Shown: positions 1-64,000, numbered from the stretch's first letter. The stretch is 64,000 bases of DNA from Gemmatimonadales bacterium (GCA_052389555.1 JBQTHV010000036.1:18531-82530); one strand, 5' to 3'. Notes: a model not told the origin generated them from the letters alone. Made by a program: numbers and translations.

Positions 1-4628
<4,628 letters not shown>

Positions 4629-4675
4629 TTAGGTTTCTGCCCGGAAAGTTAGTTAACCCTCGGAGTTGAGCACGA

Positions 4676-4879
4676 ATGGCACGCATCTGCGCCGTCTGCG
4701 GTAAAGGCCCAACCGCGGGCAACCACGTGAGCCACGCGAACAACCGCGTGAAACGGCGCTGGTATCCTAACCTCCAGACCGTTCGTACCCTCGTGAACGG
4801 CCAGGTCCGCCGCATCCGGGTGTGTGCCCAGTGCATCCGCAGCAACCGGGTCGTCAAGGCTCCCGCAGCGGTCTCCTGA
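4676..4879 (+). CDS. rpmB: 50S ribosomal protein L28
   Basis: [34 protein letters not shown]... is a typical L28 sequence. Confidence 0.93.
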
Positions 4880-4880
4880 A

Positions 4881-4909
4881 TGAAAAAACGGGGACCCATC
4901 GGGTCCCCG
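4881..4909 (-). terminator. intrinsic terminator after rplQ (the hairpin also lies 3' of convergent rpmB)
   Basis: The stem is cggggaccc / gggtccccg (9 bp, loop atc, 4889-4909). On the minus strand it is followed by TTTTTT (forward aaaaaa, 4883-4888). Confidence 0.8.
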
Positions 4910-4934
4910 CCTGAGCGCCACGGCGCCGGCTCTC

Positions 4935-5291
4935 TCATTCCGTGAGGAGCTCGATTCGCGCGAGCTCGGCTCCATCGCCGGCGCGATGGCCGAGCTTGAG
5001 AATCCGCAGGTAGCCGCCGGGGCGGGCCGCAAAGCGCGGGCCGATCTCCCTGAACAGCCGGCCCAGAACTTCGCGATCCTTGATTCGTCGCTCGACCAGG
5101 CGTCGGGCGTGGAGGTCGCCCCGGCGGGCGAGGGTGATCAAACGCTCCGCATACGGCCGGAGCTCTTTGGCTTTGGCCTGCGTGGTGACGATGCCGTCAT
5201 GACGGAACAGGCTCGCGGCCAGGTTCCGGAGCAACGCCTTCCGGTGGCTGGCGGTACGGGAAAGCTGGCGGCCCTTGGCGCGATGGCGCAT
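4935..5291 (-). CDS. rplQ: 50S ribosomal protein L17
   Basis: MRHRAKGRQLSRTASHRKALLRNLAASLFRHDGIVTTQAKAKELRPYAERLITLA is an L17 sequence, and the gene follows rpoA. Confidence 0.94.
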   Translation of the reverse strand: MRHRAKGRQLSRTASHRKALLRNLAASLFRHDGIVTTQAKAKELRPYAERLITLARRGDLHARRLVERRIKDREVLGRLFREIGPRFAARPGGYLRILKLGHRAGDGAELARIELLTE

Positions 5292-6376
5292 CAGCCCTCG
5301 CTTCCGGTCTCCGGCATCCTGGCGGTCTCCTCGCCTTCCGCGGGAGCAACCGATGTCTCGGCCCGAGCGTCCGGCCGGGCGACCACCAGGTCACCATCAA
5401 CTTCCTCGAACGCCATCCCGAAGCGGAGCCCTTCGCGCTGGAGCAGATCGGCGATTTCCTCGATGGCCCGCTCGCCCACGTTCTTCACCTGGTCGAGCTG
5501 GCGCTCGTCCAGCTCCACCAGATCGCGCAGGGTGCGGATGTTGGAGTTCTTGAGCGAGTTGAGCGTCCGGACCGACAATCCGAGGTCGTCGATCAGCTTC
5601 TCGAGCTTGAGCCGGAGCCCGCTGGTTACCTTGGTGCCTTCCGCCGGCGCGGGCCGGGCCTGCGGCACCCGGCCGAAGTCGATGAAGAACCGGAAGTGCT
5701 CGGTGGCCAGGGCGGCCGCGTACGCGATGGCGTCCTCCGGACTGATCGTGCCGTTGGTCTCCACCATCACCGCGAGACGGTCGTAGTCGGTGCGCTGCCC
5801 CACCCGGGTCTCGCTCACCGTGAAATTCGCCCGCCGCACCGGATTGTAGATCGCATCGATCCGGATCACGTCCACGGGAAGCGACCGGTCGGTCGGATGC
5901 AGCTCGGCCTCCACATAGCCGCGGCCCTTGTTGACGTACAGGTCGCAGGAGATGTCCCGCGAATCCTGCACGGTGAAGAGGAGATGATCCGGATTCACGA
6001 CCCGCACGCCGGCCGTCTCCTGAATATCCCGCGCGTGCACCGGTGCTTTCCCTTCCCGGCGGATGCGCAGAATGGCCTCGTCCTTGTCCTCATCGAGGAC
6101 CAGGGTCAGTGCCTTGAGCCGCTGGATGATCTGGTGCACGTCTTCCAGGATGCCGGGGACGGTCTGGTGCTCGTGAACCACGCCATCCATGCGGAAGGCC
6201 CAGACCGCCGAACCGCGGAGCGAGGACAGCAGCAACCGCCGGAGCGCGTTGCCCAACGTGTAGCCGTACCCGCGCTCCAGCGGCTGCAGCCGGAACTCGG
6301 CGATATTGGGATTCTCGTCCCGCTTGGTCATTTCGACCATGAAGGGACGAACCAGGCCGGTCATGTCGATAGTCAT
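5291..6376 (-). CDS. rpoA: DNA-directed RNA polymerase subunit alpha
   Basis: MTIDMTGLVRPFMVEMTKRDENPNIAEFRLQPLERGYGYTLGNALRRLLLSSL.... I chose ATG 6376, which lies 16 nt after the rpsD stop. The longer track ORF to 6433 would overlap rpsD. The protein has an acidic C-terminal extension of about 40 aa. Confidence 0.93.
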   Translation of the reverse strand: MTIDMTGLVRPFMVEMTKRDENPNIAEFRLQPLERGYGYTLGNALRRLLLSSLRGSAVWAFRMDGVVHEHQTVPGILEDVHQIIQRLKALTLVLDEDKDEAILRIRREGKAPVHARDIQETAGVRVVNPDHLLFTVQDSRDISCDLYVNKGRGYVEAELHPTDRSLPVDVIRIDAIYNPVRRANFTVSETRVGQRTDYDRLAVMVETNGTISPEDAIAYAAALATEHFRFFIDFGRVPQARPAPAEGTKVTSGLRLKLEKLIDDLGLSVRTLNSLKNSNIRTLRDLVELDERQLDQVKNVGERAIEEIADLLQREGLRFGMAFEEVDGDLVVARPDARAETSVAPAEGEETARMPETGSEG

Positions 6377-6392
6377 GCGGGTACCGTTCTGA

Positions 6393-7031
6393 TCACTTCG
6401 AGTAAAGCTCGACCACGAGCTGTTCCTGGGCATTCAGCGGAATCGTGTCGCGAGTCGGCACCATGGTGAGCCGGCCCGACGCCGTGTCGGTATCCACGTT
6501 GAGCCAGGAGATCGGCGCGCCCCGGGTCGCGCTCTCCAGCGCGAGCTTCACCGGAACCAGGTCGCGGCTTTCGGGGGCGATCCGGATTTCCTGGCCCGGC
6601 TTCACGCGGTAGGATGGGATATTCACGCGCTCACCGTTCACCTGCACATGGCCATGCCGCACCAGCTGGCGCGCCTGCTTGCGGCTGGTCGCGAAGTTCA
6701 TCCGATACACGACGTTGTCGAGCCGGGTTTCCAGCGCTACCAGCAGGTTGGTGCCCTTGACGCCAGGCTCCTGGGTCGCCCGGTCGAAGGTGTTGCGGAA
6801 CTGCCGCTCCGAAAGTCCGTAGATCCGCTTGACCTTCTGCTTCTCCCGGAGCTGGCGCGCATACTCGGAGAGCTTGCGTCCCCGTCCGCCGCTCGCTTGT
6901 CCGTGCTGCCCAGGGGCATAGGCGCGCCGCTCGACCGCACACTTCTCGGTGAGGCAGCGCGATCCCTTGAGGAACAGCTTCATCCCCTCGCGCCGGCAGA
7001 GCCGGCAAACCGGTCCGGTGTAGCGCGCCAT
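6393..7031 (-). CDS. rpsD: 30S ribosomal protein S4
   Basis: MARYTGPVCRLCRREGMKLFLKGSRCLTEKCAVERRAYAPGQHG... is an S4 sequence. Confidence 0.95.
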   Translation of the reverse strand: MARYTGPVCRLCRREGMKLFLKGSRCLTEKCAVERRAYAPGQHGQASGGRGRKLSEYARQLREKQKVKRIYGLSERQFRNTFDRATQEPGVKGTNLLVALETRLDNVVYRMNFATSRKQARQLVRHGHVQVNGERVNIPSYRVKPGQEIRIAPESRDLVPVKLALESATRGAPISWLNVDTDTASGRLTMVPTRDTIPLNAQEQLVVELYSK

Positions 7032-7034
7032 CGC

Positions 7035-7487
7035 TCAGACCCGCCGACGCTTGGGAGGACGGCACCCATTGTGGGGAATCGGGGTGACATCCTTGATGGA
7101 GAGAATCTTGAGTCCAACCGAGGCCAGGGCTTGGATGGCCGACTCGCGACCGCTCCCCGGTCCCTGAACCAGGACATGCAACCGCCGAACCCCGAGGTTC
7201 ATCGCCTCGCGCCCCACATTCTCGGCGGCGACGGTCGCAGCGAACGGCGTGCTCTTCTTGGAGCCCTTGAATCCGGCCTTCCCCGCCGTACCCCATGCGA
7301 TGGCATTGCCGCGCGTATCAGTGATGGTGATGAGCACGTTGTTGAACGTAGCCGAGATGTGGGCGATGCCTTCGGCTTCCACCACCTTGCGGCCCCGCTT
7401 GGCCTTGGCCGGAGCAGCGGGCGCCGGGGAAGGAGCCCCCGTCGGGGGAGTCGGCTCGGGCGAAACGGGTTCGGTTGGAGTCGTCAT
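7035..7487 (-). CDS. rpsK: 30S ribosomal protein S11 (with a ~30-aa Pro/Ala-rich N-terminal extension)
   Basis: ...[45 protein letters not shown]...[15 protein letters not shown]. Confidence 0.94.
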
Positions 7488-7867
7488 TACTTCTTGGTCG
7501 CCTTCTTCTTGCCCGCGATGGCCCGGCGGGGGCCCCTCTTGGTGCGGGCGTTCGTGTGAGTGCGCTGGCCGCGGACCGGCAGGCCCTTCCGGTGACGGGA
7601 GCCCCGGTAGGTACCCACATCCATCAGCCGTTTGATGTTCATGGCCACCTCGGTGCGCAGGGCACCCTCCACCTTGACGCTCCGCTCGATCAATTGCCGG
7701 AGCCGCGCTACTTCGGCATCCGTGAGATCGCGAGTCCGGGTGTCCGGGTTGATCCCCGAATCCCCCAGCAACCGATTGCTGATGGGCCGGCCGATGCCGT
7801 AGATGTAGGTGAGAGCGATTTCGATGCGTTTGTCCCGCGGGAGATCAACGCCTGCAATACGCGCCAT
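7487..7867 (-). CDS. rpsM: 30S ribosomal protein S13
   Basis: [34 protein letters not shown]...[26 protein letters not shown]. Confidence 0.95.
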
Positions 7868-35979: not shown

Positions 35980-36010
35980 GCCCGCCGGATGTGAACCGGC
36001 GGGCATTTTT
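35980..36010 (+). terminator. intrinsic terminator after the iscA-like gene
   Basis: gcccgccgg (35980-35988) pairs with ccggcgggc (35996-36004), followed by attttt. Confidence 0.8.
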
Positions 36011-59945: not shown

Positions 59946-61913
59946 ATGTCGCACCCAAGCGACCCTGGGTCGCCCCCTCCTATTTCGCTTCCCCCCCTCG
60001 GGCTCACCCTGGAGGAAATCGGCCGGCTCACCTGGACCATCGAAGACTACGCGATCTTCATCCTCGACCCGGCCGGCCGGATCATGAGCTGGAACCTGGG
60101 CGCGGCTCGGGTCACCGGGTACGCAGCTCATGAGATCCTGGAGCAGCCCTACCGGCAGGTGAGCCGGACCGCGGCAGGCGAGCTCGAGGCTGCTGCTGCT
60201 GAGGGCCGCTACGCCGAGGCCGGTTGGCGCCATCGGAAGGACGGCTCCCGGTTCTGGTCCAGCGTCGTGGTCACCGCGCTGCGCGACCCGGCCGGATCCC
60301 TTCGCTGTTTTCTGGTGATCCTGCGCGACCTCAGCTCGCGGCTCGAGCTGGAGGAGCAGCTCCGCCAAGCAGTCGCGCAGGCCCAGCGGGAAGCCGAACT
60401 CCGCGCCCGGGAGAGCGAGGAGCGCTTTGCCCGATTCACCCGGCACCTCCCCGGACTTGCCTGGATCAAGGATCTCGAGGGCCGGTATGTGTATGTGAAC
60501 GGACCGTGCGCTCGGGCGTTCGGGCGGCTCCGTGCCGAGATCATTGGGCGCACCGATGCGGAGCTGTTTCCCCCCGACACCGCCGCCCAGTTCCGGGAGA
60601 ACGACCGCCGCGCCCTGGGCGCCGAGACCGGGATCCAGGCGGTTGAGTTGCTGACCGACCCGACCGGGGCGGTCCGCCACTCGATCATCAGCAAGTTCCC
60701 GATCTTCGATGCTTCCGGCCGGCCCGCGCGGGTGGGCGGGATCGCGATCGACATCACCGAGCGGGTTAGGGCCGAAGCTGCGCTCCAGGAAGCCGACCGG
60801 CGGAAGGACGAGTTCCTCGCGACCCTGTCACACGAGCTGCGGAACGCCCTCGCGCCTCTCCGCAACTCGCTCTTCCTGGCCGGGAGCCTCGATCAGGCCG
60901 GAACCCATCAGCGTCTCTTTCAGACGATGGAGGACCAGCTGCACCGGCTGGTGCGGCTGGTCGACGACCTGCTCGAAGTTTCCCGCATCACCAGCGGCAA
61001 GATCGAGCTGCGGCGCGAACCGGTCTCGCTCTCGGCGGTCGTGGAGAGCGCGCTGGATACCAGCCGTCCGGTGATCGAGGGCGCCGGTCATCGCCTCGAG
61101 GTCACGCTCCCCTCCGAGCCGATCGTGCTCGAGGCCGATCCGGTGCGGCTGGCCCAGGTCATTTCCAATCTTCTCAACAACGCCGCGAAGTACACGCCGG
61201 AAGGCGGCCGGATCTGGCTCAGGGCCCGCTGCGAAGAATCGGACGCCGTCGTATCGGTTCGGGACGACGGGTTAGGCATTCCGGCCGAGATGCTAGACCG
61301 GGTCTTCGAGATCTTCACTCAGGTGGATCGGACCCTCAAGCGAGCGCAGGAGGGCCTGGGCATCGGCCTCGCCCTGGCTCGCCGGCTGGCCGAATTGCAT
61401 GGCGGCCGGCTCGAGGCGCGGAGCGATGGGCTCTATTGCGGGAGTGAGTTCGTGTTGCGCCTCCCGATCCCCGCCGGCCTGACCAGCCCGGCCGCACCGA
61501 CGCGGGGCGACGAATCCACCAGCAGGGCACCGCCCTCGATCCGCGTGGTCGTGGTCGATGACAGTCGCGACGGTGCCGATACGCTGGCAATGGTCCTTCA
61601 CACCCTCGGCGCCGAGGTGCGGGTGGCGTATGACGGGCTCTCGGCACTTCAAACGATTCGGGAATACCGGCCGTCCCTCGTTCTGCTGGACCTTGGCATG
61701 CCGGGGATGGACGGCTACGAAGTGGCGTACCGCATTCGTGGTGATCCGGCGATCGGACCCATCCGCCTCGTTGCGCTCACCGGTTTCGGCTCGGAGGAGG
61801 AGCGTCGCCGAGCCCTTGGCTCCGGATTCGACGAACACTGCGTCAAGCCGGCCGATCCGGCTCTGCTCCGGGAGCTGCTCACGAGCTCGGCCCGGAGCGC
61901 GGCTTCTCGCTGA
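59946..61913 (+). CDS. hybrid sensor histidine kinase/response regulator (PAS-PAS-HisKA-HATPase-REC)
   Basis: H-box FLATLSHELRNALAPL, ...NLLNNAAKYTP...DDGLGIP...GLGIGLALAR. The C-terminal REC domain reads VVVVDDSRD...LVLLDLGMPGMDG...KP. Confidence 0.9.
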   Translation: MSHPSDPGSPPPISLPPLGLTLEEIGRLTWTIEDYAIFILDPAGRIMSWNLGAARVTGYAAHEILEQPYRQVSRTAAGELEAAAAEGRYAEAGWRHRKDGSRFWSSVVVTALRDPAGSLRCFLVILRDLSSRLELEEQLRQAVAQAQREAELRARESEERFARFTRHLPGLAWIKDLEGRYVYVNGPCARAFGRLRAEIIGRTDAELFPPDTAAQFRENDRRALGAETGIQAVELLTDPTGAVRHSIISKFPIFDASGRPARVGGIAIDITERVRAEAALQEADRRKDEFLATLSHELRNALAPLRNSLFLAGSLDQAGTHQRLFQTMEDQLHRLVRLVDDLLEVSRITSGKIELRREPVSLSAVVESALDTSRPVIEGAGHRLEVTLPSEPIVLEADPVRLAQVISNLLNNAAKYTPEGGRIWLRARCEESDAVVSVRDDGLGIPAEMLDRVFEIFTQVDRTLKRAQEGLGIGLALARRLAELHGGRLEARSDGLYCGSEFVLRLPIPAGLTSPAAPTRGDESTSRAPPSIRVVVVDDSRDGADTLAMVLHTLGAEVRVAYDGLSALQTIREYRPSLVLLDLGMPGMDGYEVAYRIRGDPAIGPIRLVALTGFGSEEERRRALGSGFDEHCVKPADPALLRELLTSSARSAASR

Positions 61914-61963
61914 CCGAGTCTCTTGGTCAGCGGGTGGTCCCCATCCATATTTCCTTCGTGCCA

Positions 61964-62036
61964 GGGGCGGTAGCTCAGCCGGGAGAGCGCCTGGTTTGCA
62001 ACCAGGAGGTCACGGGTTCGATTCCCGTCCGCTCCA
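61964..62036 (+). tRNA. tRNA-Ala (anticodon UGC)
   Basis: Acceptor GGGGCGG/CCGCTCC with the G3:U70 identity pair, anticodon stem-loop cctgg-TTTGCAA-ccagg, and T arm acggg-ttcgatt-cccgt. It is 73 nt and encodes no CCA. Confidence 0.92.
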
Positions 62037-62083
62037 TGGTCGGCCTTGACGAAACCGATCGGACCCGAGATACTAGACCGACG

Positions 62084-62155
62084 ATGCGACCCTCGATTCA
62101 GCAGAGCTGGTGGGCCTGGCGCGGTGATCGCCGCGGTGGGCCGGGGTGCGCTTGA
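62084..62155 (+). CDS. candidate Trp-rich leader peptide (23 aa) of an aroF-trpE attenuator
   Basis: The ORF reads MRPSIQQSWWAWRGDRRGGPGCA*. Three Trp codons fall within four positions (62108-62119). The ORF ends 38 nt before a terminator that abuts aroF. I found no obvious Shine-Dalgarno sequence. Confidence 0.5.
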   Translation: MRPSIQQSWWAWRGDRRGGPGCA

Positions 62156-62193
62156 AGCCGTAGTCACGTAGGAGGACGCGCAATCTCAGGGAG

Positions 62194-62217
62194 CCCACCG
62201 GAAGCGGTGGGTTTTTT
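62194..62217 (+). terminator. intrinsic terminator / attenuator hairpin immediately upstream of aroF
   Basis: cccaccg (62194-62200) pairs with cggtggg (62205-62211) across loop gaag, followed by TTTTTT. The aroF ATG lies 5 nt after the T-tract. Confidence 0.75.
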
Positions 62218-62222
62218 GTTGC

Positions 62223-63236
62223 ATGATCATCGTCCTTAAACCTCACGCCACCAGGGCGCACGCCGAAGCGCTGATGCAGCGCATCGCGGCCCTCGGCCTC
62301 CGGCCGCTCTACATGCCCGGGCAGGAACGCGTCGTGCTGGGCGCCCTGGGCGACGAGCGCGCGCTTGAGAGCCTCCATCTCGACAGCGATCCTCTGGTCG
62401 AGAGCGTCAAACCCATTCTGGCCCCGTACAAGCTGGTCGGGCGCGAGATCCACCCCCACGATTCCATCATCGACCTCGGCGGAACCCAGGTCGGCGGCGG
62501 GCGGTTCACCGTCGTGGCGGGGCCGTGCGCGGTCGAGAGTGCCGACCAGATGCGCCGCACCGCCCAGGCGGTGCACACCGCGGGCGCCCACGCGTTGCGA
62601 GGCGGTGCCTACAAGCCGCGCACCAGTCCGTACTCGTTTCAGGGCCTCGGCAAGGAGGGCCTCGCGATCCTCCGCGAGGTGTCTCAGGAAACCGGGCTCC
62701 CCACCGTGACCGAAGTCATGGACCCGGGCGATGTCGAGTTGGTCGACCAATACGCTGCCGCGTTCCAGGCCGGCGCGCGCAACATGCAGAACTTCCGCCT
62801 GCTCCAGGCCCTCGGGAAGAGCCGTAAGCCGGTGGTGCTGAAGCGCGGCCCGGCGGCCAAGGTCGATGACCTGCTGCTCGCCGCCGAGTACATCCTGGCC
62901 GAAGGCAATCCCAACGTGATCCTGTGCGAGCGCGGCATCACCACGTTCGAGACCGCTACCCGTAACACGCTCGATCTGAATGCGGTCCCGCTGATCAAGC
63001 AGCGAAGTCATCTGCCGGTGCTGGTGGACCCCTCCCACGGCACCGGACTGCGCGAACTGGTGCCGCCGATGGCCAAGGCCGCGCTCGCGTGTGGGGCGGA
63101 CGGGATTCTGGTCGAGGTACACTACGATCCTGCTCAGGCGCTCTCCGACGGCCGGCAATCGCTGTATCCCGAGCAGTTCGCCCAGATGATGCGGGAGCTC
63201 AGGACCATCGCCGCCGCGATCGGCAAGGTGATGTGA
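62223..63236 (+). CDS. aroF: 3-deoxy-7-phosphoheptulonate (DAHP) synthase, type I-beta with N-terminal ferredoxin-like regulatory domain
   Basis: MIIVLKPHATRAHAEALMQRI... is the regulatory domain. The catalytic part reads VVAGPCAVES...LRGGAYKPRTSPYSFQGLG...GARNMQNF...VDPSHGTG. Confidence 0.9.
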   Translation: MIIVLKPHATRAHAEALMQRIAALGLRPLYMPGQERVVLGALGDERALESLHLDSDPLVESVKPILAPYKLVGREIHPHDSIIDLGGTQVGGGRFTVVAGPCAVESADQMRRTAQAVHTAGAHALRGGAYKPRTSPYSFQGLGKEGLAILREVSQETGLPTVTEVMDPGDVELVDQYAAAFQAGARNMQNFRLLQALGKSRKPVVLKRGPAAKVDDLLLAAEYILAEGNPNVILCERGITTFETATRNTLDLNAVPLIKQRSHLPVLVDPSHGTGLRELVPPMAKAALACGADGILVEVHYDPAQALSDGRQSLYPEQFAQMMRELRTIAAAIGKVM

Positions 63237-64000
63237 TGGTGATCGCTCCGATTTCCGGGGGCGCGGTCCTGCCGCTGGTGCGGGAAGTGACCGGCAGTCC
63301 GGACCCGCTGGCGCTCTACGCGGCGCTGAGCGCGGGTGGCCAGCGGCCCGGCACCTTCCTGCTCGAGTCGGCGGAGACCGGGACCGGCTCCGGGGAGCGG
63401 AGCCTGATCGGCGCCGGCGTGGCGCTCAGACTCGCGTGTCAGGGTCGTCAGGTGGAGATCGAGGCGCGCTCTCCCAATGGCCGGGCGATGCTGCCCTGGC
63501 TGGAAACCCGGTTCGAGGATGCGGCCGGCGTCACGGTGGGCCGGGCCGAGCCTAACACGCTGCGGGTGGCCTATCCCGAGCCGCCGTCGGGCCCCCGGGA
63601 CGAGAGCAGCCGGGGCCGGCTCCCCTCGCCGCTCGATGCGCTGCGGGCCGTGGTGTTCGGCCCCGACCTGCTGGCCCACCCCACCGATGCCTGCCATCTC
63701 GCCGCCGGGGTGTTCTCCTACGATCTCATCGAGCTGTTCGAAGCGCTTCCCCCCGGCCGGCCCGAACCGGAACCGACCCCCCACTTCGAGTTCTTCGTGC
63801 CCGACCGGCTCATCGTGATCGACCACCTCCGCAACCGCACCTTGCTGGTCGCGACGGCCATCGGGGGTTCCGGCGATGCGGGGGAGGCGAACTATCACGA
63901 TGCGGTCACCGCCATCGGCGATCTCATGCAGATCCTGGAGGGAATCGGGAGTCGGGAATCGGGAGCCGGGAGTCGACTGGAAGCCCCCGATTCCCGACTC
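63236..64000 (+). CDS. trpE: anthranilate synthase component I (N-terminal part; continues beyond the window)
   Basis: My translation from ATG 63236 (TGATG overlap with the aroF stop) reads MVIAPISGGAVLPLVREVTGSPDPLALYAALSAGGQRPGTFLLESAETGTGSGERSLIG...GVFSYDLIELFE.... It is not in the ORF track because it runs off the edge. Confidence 0.85.
   Translation, partial: MVIAPISGGAVLPLVREVTGSPDPLALYAALSAGGQRPGTFLLESAETGTGSGERSLIGAGVALRLACQGRQVEIEARSPNGRAMLPWLETRFEDAAGVTVGRAEPNTLRVAYPEPPSGPRDESSRGRLPSPLDALRAVVFGPDLLAHPTDACHLAAGVFSYDLIELFEALPPGRPEPEPTPHFEFFVPDRLIVIDHLRNRTLLVATAIGGSGDAGEANYHDAVTAIGDLMQILEGIGSRESGAGSRLEAPDSRL
63941..64000. repeat. inverted heptamer arrays (GGGAATC/GGGAGTC)n in frame inside trpE (truncated by the window end)
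   Basis: ggaatcg ggagtcg ggaatcg ggagccg ggagtcg (63941-63975) is followed by the complement ccccgattcccgactc (63985-64000). It encodes GIGSRESGAGSRLEAPDSRL. Confidence 0.85.

Follow-up and report, generated by a model that had tools for sequence, protein, structure and literature searches.

Predicted Trp leader-peptide attenuator upstream of an aroF-led trp operon in Gemmatimonadales

A short open reading frame (ORF) rich in Trp codons, followed by an intrinsic terminator, directly precedes the DAHP synthase gene aroF in the window (here, the whole 64-kb stretch of DNA that was analyzed, from a MAG of a soil Gemmatimonadales bacterium). Judged from sequence comparison and modeled RNA structures, this region is very probably a ribosome-mediated leader-peptide transcription attenuator, which would sense charged tRNA-Trp and control a trp operon led by aroF. 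An attenuator upstream of aroF-trpE had been proposed in a sequence-only reading of the window, and the proposal gained support from comparative and folding evidence, including evidence from other lineages in which trpE follows aroF.

Layout of the leader region and of the regulated genes

The leader ORF contains three Trp codons within four codons and is placed 5' of aroF-trpE (Table 1). When each coordinate was checked against the sequence, the 23-codon ORF and its Trp codons were confirmed as the sequence-only reading had given them, and the terminator, the 8-bp complement, and the TGATG overlap of aroF and trpE reported there proved exact to the base. The terminator (62191-62217), which lies between the leader ORF and aroF, is a GC-rich 10-bp stem with U6, and its core consists of cccaccg (62194-62200), gaag, cggtggg (62205-62211), and TTTTTT (62212-62217). 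Inside the leader ORF, cggtgggc (62134-62141) complements gcccaccg (62193-62200) exactly. The parts of the layout named in the earlier reading were thus in place, but a 1:2 hairpin, a promoter, and a probable leaderless start had been overlooked. A promoter scan returned the sigma-70-like TTGACG-N17-GATACT (62046-62074) as the sole such site in 3 kb; it sits between tRNA-Ala and the leader ORF, and in the window 9 nt separate the end of the -10 box from the ATG. The 3' end of tRNA-Ala(TGC) is itself only 9 nt from the -35 box (61964-62051).

Table 1. Features of the aroF leader region and its neighbors, in window coordinates
Feature	Position	Strand	Basis or remark
tRNA-Ala(TGC)	61964-62036		Upstream neighbor of the leader in the window
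-35 hexamer TTGACG of leader promoter	62046-62051	+	Promoter scan; CTTGAC invariant in 12 Gemmatimonadales loci
-10 hexamer GATACT	62069-62074	+	Promoter scan; conserved as GAGATACT, 90% column identity
Leader ORF	62084-62155	+	ATG at 62084, TGA at 62153-62155; 23 codons plus stop, product MRPSIQQSWWAWRGDRRGGPGCA
Regulatory Trp codons TGG TGG GCC TGG	62108-62119	+	Read from sequence
Region 1, 5' arm of 1:2 hairpin (anti-antiterminator or pause)	62113-62125	+	MFE folds; overlaps Trp codons 2 and 3
Region 2, 3' arm of 1:2 hairpin	62130-62142	+	62134-62141/2 also the 5' strand of the 2:3 antiterminator
Region 3, terminator 5' arm; alternative partner region 2	62191-62200	+	Folding
Region 4 (terminator 3' arm) and U-tract TTTTTT	62205-62217	+	Hairpin of -17.1 to -17.8 kcal/mol
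aroF, type I-beta DAHP synthase with N-terminal ferredoxin-like regulatory domain	62223-63236	+	Pfam PF00793, PF18152
trpE, anthranilate synthase component I, 5' part, ends at window edge	63236-64000	+	Pfam PF04715

The U-tract ends 5 nt before the aroF ATG (62223) in the window, and the aroF stop codon overlaps the trpE start codon at 63234-63238. AroF of the window matched a Gemmatimonadales MAG protein at 100% identity, and the next matches fell into >120 clusters at 83-92% identity, the named ones all being Gemmatimonadales or Gemmatimonadetes. With the window ending inside trpE, the operon content beyond that gene was read from the relative L161, which carries the complete operon aroF-trpE-trpG-trpD-trpC(F)-trpB-trpA. 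On this basis, the regulated unit is probably the whole operon aroF-trpEGD(CF)BA; the sequence-only reading had named aroF and trpE, both of which belong to the unit, but so defined it was probably too narrow.

Several further observations were made on the regulated genes. The L161 operon adjoins genes for kynureninase, 3-hydroxyanthranilate dioxygenase, an amidohydrolase, an FAD monooxygenase, and a LysR regulator (1-7662), so that genes of Trp synthesis and Trp breakdown lie side by side. In L172 (1290-3761), a full Trp leader, the terminator, and aroF are followed by an unrelated convergent gene in place of trpE; unless that contig is misassembled, the attenuator can therefore control aroF alone. 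The aroF ATG of the window has no Shine-Dalgarno motif (62212-62225), and in relatives the spacer between the hairpin and aroF is 25-45 nt long, often with GGAAGG or GGA. At the window locus, the folded terminator could also block initiation of aroF translation.

Alternative folds of the leader RNA

Besides the terminator (3:4), the leader can form a 1:2 hairpin (62113-62142; -23.6 kcal/mol) in which the segment bearing Trp codons 2 and 3 pairs with region 2, and the two hairpins together complete the four-segment layout of a classical attenuator. The competing 2:3 antiterminator duplex of the window comprises 8-9 bp (-17.3 kcal/mol). The energies of both conformers, which the sequence-only reading had suggested computing, identified the terminated fold as the default: with the ribosome absent, the terminated conformer (1:2 plus 3:4) reached -62.3, versus -48.6 when the 2:3 duplex was enforced, an advantage of ~14 kcal/mol. 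Masking of nucleotides 1-46, which covers region 1 and mimics a stalled ribosome, nearly equalized the two conformers, bringing them within 4 kcal/mol of each other. When a stalled footprint was placed on the Trp codons and the transcript ended before region 4, 9 of the 10 nt of region 3 paired with 62134-62142, and region 2 was the predicted partner of region 3 in all 15 leaders that were folded with a stalled-ribosome footprint. In most of the stalled-ribosome folds, the terminator stayed the MFE structure at equilibrium. Since it does so even with the footprint in place, the switch would have to be kinetic and co-transcriptional, as in E. coli.

The last Trp codon of the window leader lies 14 nt before region 2, and the corresponding gap in E. 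coli trpL is about the same. Because of this distance, region 2 would be left free by a ribosome stalled on the Trp codons.

Conservation among Gemmatimonadales

The conservation of the mini-ORF and of its alternative pairings in related genomes, a check put forward in the sequence-only reading, was assessed at 12 distinct Gemmatimonadales loci, namely, the window, L081 (from a metagenome scan), and 10 relatives obtained through exact-protein look-ups (L161-L164, L167, L170-L173, and L176). All 12, with AroF proteins 83-100% identical, kept the promoter, the in-frame ATG, WWxW, and regions 1-4; both the mini-ORF and the pairings were therefore retained throughout. The conserved element can be written as CTTGAC-N17-GAGATACT, 7-10 nt, ATG, seven to nine variable codons, and WW[A/P/S]W, followed by CGCGG-loop-CCGCGGTGGGCC, a variable spacer, GCCCACCGC, a variable loop, and GCGGTGGGC with a T-rich tail. 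The WW[A/P/S]W motif was invariant (12/12). In the alignment of these loci (alignment A1), the -35 box had a column identity of 1.0 and the -10 box one of 0.9; a value of 0.98 was reached both by the Trp block (together with region 1) and by region 2, and one of 0.92 by regions 3 and 4 alike. Identity fell to 0.38-0.59 in the promoter spacer, in the N-terminal codons, in the loops, and between regions 2 and 3. The distance from the ATG to TGGTGG was 24, 27, or 30 nt, such that changes in length were multiples of 3 and the frame was kept.

The gap of 7-10 nt between the -10 box and the leader ATG was common to all 12 loci, and a Shine-Dalgarno motif in that gap was absent from every one of them. 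Because the -10 box is so close to the ATG and such a motif is missing, translation of the leader ORF probably begins on an mRNA that is leaderless or almost so, the start site being placed according to the position of the promoter; the model assumes leaderless translation in Gemmatimonadota. The 17-nt promoter spacer was 59% conserved across the 12 loci and, being unconserved in this sense, gave no sign of a TrpR operator in the leader promoter.

The same comparison bears on a simpler account, raised in the sequence-only reading as a scenario that would refute it, in which the hairpin and T-run are a plain terminator of a tRNA-Ala/histidine-kinase transcript, the mini-ORF is a product of chance, and aroF has a promoter of its own. 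In the window, no other terminator lies between the end of tRNA-Ala (62036) and 62217, as this account would have it, and tRNA-Ala is the upstream neighbor at 4 of the 12 loci (the window, L161, L163, and L176). The complete element was nevertheless present at the other eight loci, which have no upstream tRNA and whose upstream neighbors are unrelated (DUF4142, beta-lactamase, aminotransferase, DHOR, and others). These variable neighbors indicate that the terminator belongs to the leader and not to the tRNA. Moreover, a conserved promoter separates the tRNA from the leader, the 5 nt between the terminator and the aroF ATG leave no room for a downstream promoter, and conservation extends to the frame of the ORF, to its Trp codons, and to region 2. 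The plain-terminator account thus fails as an objection, and we consider it extremely improbable. Where tRNA-Ala is the neighbor, the terminator of the attenuator probably also stops readthrough from the tRNA gene.

A second alternative is that the mini-ORF or the short transcript serves mainly as a functional small peptide or a trans-acting sRNA, in the manner of the Sinorhizobium products peTrpL and rnTrpL. All 12 loci keep the motif WRG..RGGP.C[A/V] at the C terminus of the peptide, as might be expected of a functional peptide, and Sinorhizobium is documented to have attenuator-derived sRNAs and leader peptides that act in trans (PMC6614838, PMC7298713). In regions 1 and 2, however, third codon positions were as conserved as positions 1 and 2 (alignment A1), and the constraint is therefore on RNA pairing rather than on the peptide. 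The conservation coincides with the pairing segments, whereas N-terminal and hairpin-loop codons vary freely, a pattern that fits constraint at the RNA level. A role in trans would in any case supplement attenuation and not substitute for it, and as the main function it is very unlikely.

The helices themselves were well preserved. Overall, 95-97% of cells were paired within Gemmatimonadales; the value was 98% for the 1:2 hairpin in alignment A1 and 95% for the 2:3 pairing across the 12 loci, with a C-A mismatch in the 2:3 duplex of L161 and L163. Compensatory changes were limited to two base-of-stem pairs, both in the terminator, and shuffles often reached the observed scores; covariation within these 12 loci is uninformative because the helices hardly vary. 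A second exact copy of the region 1 motif, TGGTGGNCCTGGCGCG, was noticed inside trpE of L162 (4155-4170) and is probably a chance occurrence in GC-rich coding sequence.

The terminator tail was less uniform. Canonical T5-T7 tracts were found in the window and at most loci, and poor U-tracts, e.g., GGGCTTCGTCGTTG, were found in L164, L171, and L173, where purely intrinsic termination may consequently be inefficient. Trp could accordingly be sensed by ribosome stalling with a different output, either Rho-dependent termination or translational control of aroF by the abutting hairpin. The weak tracts of these three loci would suit such an output, as would the window itself, in which the aroF ATG has no Shine-Dalgarno motif and stands so close to the hairpin that the 3:4 stem would occupy the ribosome landing site. 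The canonical tracts of the window and most relatives argue against it, and since other loci start aroF 25-45 nt past the hairpin, start-site occlusion is not conserved. We therefore regard this output as distinctly unlikely and transcription attenuation as the preferred reading.

Chance expectation within the window

The Trp-codon motif TGGTGGNNNTGG occurred four times on both strands of the 64-kb window, versus 0.5 expected, and the copy at the leader was the only one of the four within an intergenic mini-ORF. In this sequence of 66.7% GC, a scan for perfect stems of 7 bp or longer with a run of T5 or longer behind them returned only three hairpins, and the sole run of T6 or longer on the + strand starts at 62212. 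The three canonical terminators were located at 4889-4909 (-), 35980-36004 (+), and 62194-62217 (+), and this genome appears to make little use of intrinsic termination. A generic terminator scan did not call the hairpin at 62191-62217, likely because a G-U extension of the stem absorbs the T-run. The 2:3 duplex of the window (-17.3 kcal/mol) was compared with 1,000 dinucleotide shuffles of the segment in between, which averaged -11.4 +/- 2.0 kcal/mol and were as good in 17 cases; the 1:2 duplex was equaled by 5 of 1,000 dinucleotide shuffles. It is unlikely that the features of the leader arose by chance.

Trp leaders at aroF-trpE loci of other lineages

A wider comparison covered the 160 loci with the most similar AroF proteins, drawn from species genomes and metagenomes. 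In only five of these (L003, L004, L006, L082, and L083) was trpE directly 3' of aroF. The three loci that could be evaluated (L004, L006, and L082) all had a Trp-rich leader and then a terminator, together with a region 2:3 complement; at L003 and L083, terminators were visible at the contig edge, and the leader region was cut off. The leader peptides were MTHRSAQHIAWWWRSQT in Ferrimonas balearica (L004; motif WWW), one ending in ANWWRWLFLEAEGAPA in Enterovirga sp. (L006; motif WWRW), and MIQVRSAQTWWWRWSPAIDAARPMNG at the metagenome locus L082 (motif WWWRW). The motifs of Enterovirga and L082 resemble those of alpha-proteobacterial trpL peptides that contain WWW, e.g., in Sinorhizobium. In folds with a stalled ribosome, region 2 paired with region 3 as AGCGGG with CCCGCU (L004), GGCGCGCC with GGCCCGCC (L006), and CGGCGCGC with CCGCCG (L082); for L082 and Ferrimonas, the 2:3 and 1:2 duplexes, with the arms as defined here, were no better than shuffles.

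The three loci are like the window in the order of Trp leader, terminator, aroF (I-beta, with the ferredoxin-like domain), and trpE, whereas their leader sequences are unrelated to the Gemmatimonadales leader. As read from sequence, they are independent solutions to one architecture and the best substitute for covariation. No published description of any of the three loci was found. The Ferrimonas leader gave a match to the Rfam Trp_leader model (RF00513) over the whole model (2874-2981; 29.8 bits, E = 0.027), which is below the gathering threshold of 41 bits. This leader, 5' of aroF-trpE-trpG, resembles a trpL attenuator of gamma-proteobacteria that is separated from trpE by a DAHP synthase gene.

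In a rough neighbor-joining tree, the AroF proteins of the aroF-trpE loci grouped with those of Gemmatimonadales. The species representatives with the closest AroF, L001 and L002 (72% and 69%), had neither a Trp leader nor a downstream trpE, and the leader therefore goes with the trp-linked arrangement and not with the AroF clade as a whole. Upstream of aroF in L002 (2670-2930; a Methylomirabilota MAG), tandem GGTTCAA repeats were observed with an inverted TTGAACC copy ~100 nt downstream, and these repeats could form a long hairpin.

A speculative and rather unlikely extension is that leader, terminator, aroF, and trp genes moved as a cassette between Gemmatimonadota, Alpha-, and Gammaproteobacteria together with a Trp-dedicated DAHP synthase isozyme, with a possible role in trans for the leader RNA or peptide. 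The isozyme would perhaps be inhibited by Trp through its ferredoxin-like domain, and by analogy with rnTrpL and peTrpL of Sinorhizobium, an abundant terminated leader RNA or the conserved WWPWRG..RGGPxCA peptide of Gemmatimonadales might also act in trans.

Discussion

In the proposed attenuation mechanism, transcription would start at the conserved TTGACG-N17-GATACT promoter, at the leader AUG or a few nucleotides from it, and the leaderless mRNA would be translated. With Trp plentiful, a ribosome running to the stop codon would cover region 2, or the 1:2 hairpin would lock it; if the leader were untranslated, region 2 would likewise be held in the 1:2 hairpin, making termination the default. 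With region 2 unavailable, region 3 would pair with region 4, and polymerase would terminate in the U-tract, which ends 5 nt short of the aroF start. When Trp runs short, the ribosome would stall on UGG UGG GCC UGG, its footprint masking region 1 and ending ~14 nt before region 2, and the freed region 2 would capture the emerging region 3 before region 4 exists. Trp-dependent readthrough into aroF and the trp genes would follow.

As a predicted attenuator, the element represents a well-known mechanism in a sequence family and a phylum that are new to it, with two mildly unusual traits, i.e., aroF as the first regulated gene and a leader ORF that is probably leaderless. Gemmatimonadota, an abundant yet poorly studied soil phylum, would thereby join the few lineages with amino-acid leader-peptide attenuation, and a Trp signal would govern both the trp genes and the enzyme at the entry to the entire aromatic pathway. 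For annotators, the result is an element, conserved but missed by the Rfam models now in use, that combines a promoter, a probable leaderless start, and a predicted attenuator. The predicted native promoter and start site, with a Trp-responsive part, would be useful in a phylum with almost no genetic tools. The understanding of attenuation itself is unchanged by the Gemmatimonadales leader.

Leader-peptide Trp attenuators are textbook examples of regulation in Proteobacteria. According to a survey from 2010, leader-peptide systems had until then been known from Proteobacteria and Actinobacteria alone; the survey itself added Firmicutes (PMC2965389), and a report on Deinococcus came in 2014 (PMC4007540). 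For Trp, such an attenuator is described in Sinorhizobium (PMC6614838), and another report cites examples from Corynebacterium and Streptomyces (PMC4833913). The claim of novelty in the sequence-only reading held in part. Our literature search found no description of a leader peptide in Gemmatimonadota, and a natural aroF-trpE or aroG-trpE operon was not found in the searchable literature, an earlier mention in papers on trp-operon evolution being possible; aroF leaders with Phe/Tyr codons and a leaderless Trp leader in Deinococcus, on the other hand, were already known. In Deinococcus deserti, the latter lies 5' of trpEGD and has a predicted role in attenuation, and differential RNA-seq placed its transcription start at the start codon or 1 nt upstream of it (PMC4007540). 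The Gemmatimonadales leader is like it in being a Trp leader peptide outside Proteobacteria and Actinobacteria and, probably, in being leaderless; it differs in that its start was placed from the promoter position instead of being mapped, and the D. deserti operon has no aroF.

Leader peptides in front of aroF provide a second comparison. C. glutamicum has an aroF leader peptide with Phe/Tyr codons. In Acholeplasma, the uORFC-13-1 motif consists of a leader ORF with Phe codons and a terminator 5' of aroF (PMC8632094). As predicted for Gemmatimonadales, a short upstream ORF and an intrinsic terminator control a DAHP synthase gene in these systems. The Acholeplasma ORF would sense Phe, however, whereas here Trp would be the signal and a trp operon begins with aroF; neither the Acholeplasma nor the C. 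glutamicum aroF leader is known to have been reported with trp genes. The linkage of common-pathway genes with trp genes has a parallel in the aro-trp supraoperon of Desulfovibrio vulgaris, for which an attenuator was predicted (PMC1173090). There too, common aromatic-pathway genes stand ahead of a complete trp operon with the predicted attenuator in front, but the supraoperon starts with alternative aroA' and aroB' genes, followed by pheA, aroF (in the nomenclature of that paper), and tyrA, and its attenuator is a database prediction only, with no leader peptide described.

Another close counterpart in layout is the trpL attenuator of E. coli and other gamma-proteobacteria, represented in Rfam by RF00513. 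That model gave no match up to E = 10 in the window (61800-62400) and no match in L161, L006, or L082. Among T-box and other curated leaders in Rfam 15, only tRNA-Ala passed the threshold in the intergenic region, the remainder being tRNA-derived noise. The Gemmatimonadales leader differs from E. coli trpL in having three Trp codons instead of two, in carrying region 2 inside the ORF and not after the stop codon, in the absence of a 5' untranslated region or Shine-Dalgarno motif (its start being probably leaderless), and in a spacer of ~50 nt between regions 2 and 3. The first regulated gene here is the DAHP synthase gene, whereas in E. coli it is trpE, the host belongs to Gemmatimonadota, and the leader promoter shows no sign of a TrpR operator. 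Nevertheless, the two share a short ORF with adjacent Trp codons, the 1:2, 2:3, and 3:4 pairings, an intrinsic terminator just 5' of the first structural gene, a fused trpC(F) gene in the operon, and termination as the default when the leader is untranslated.
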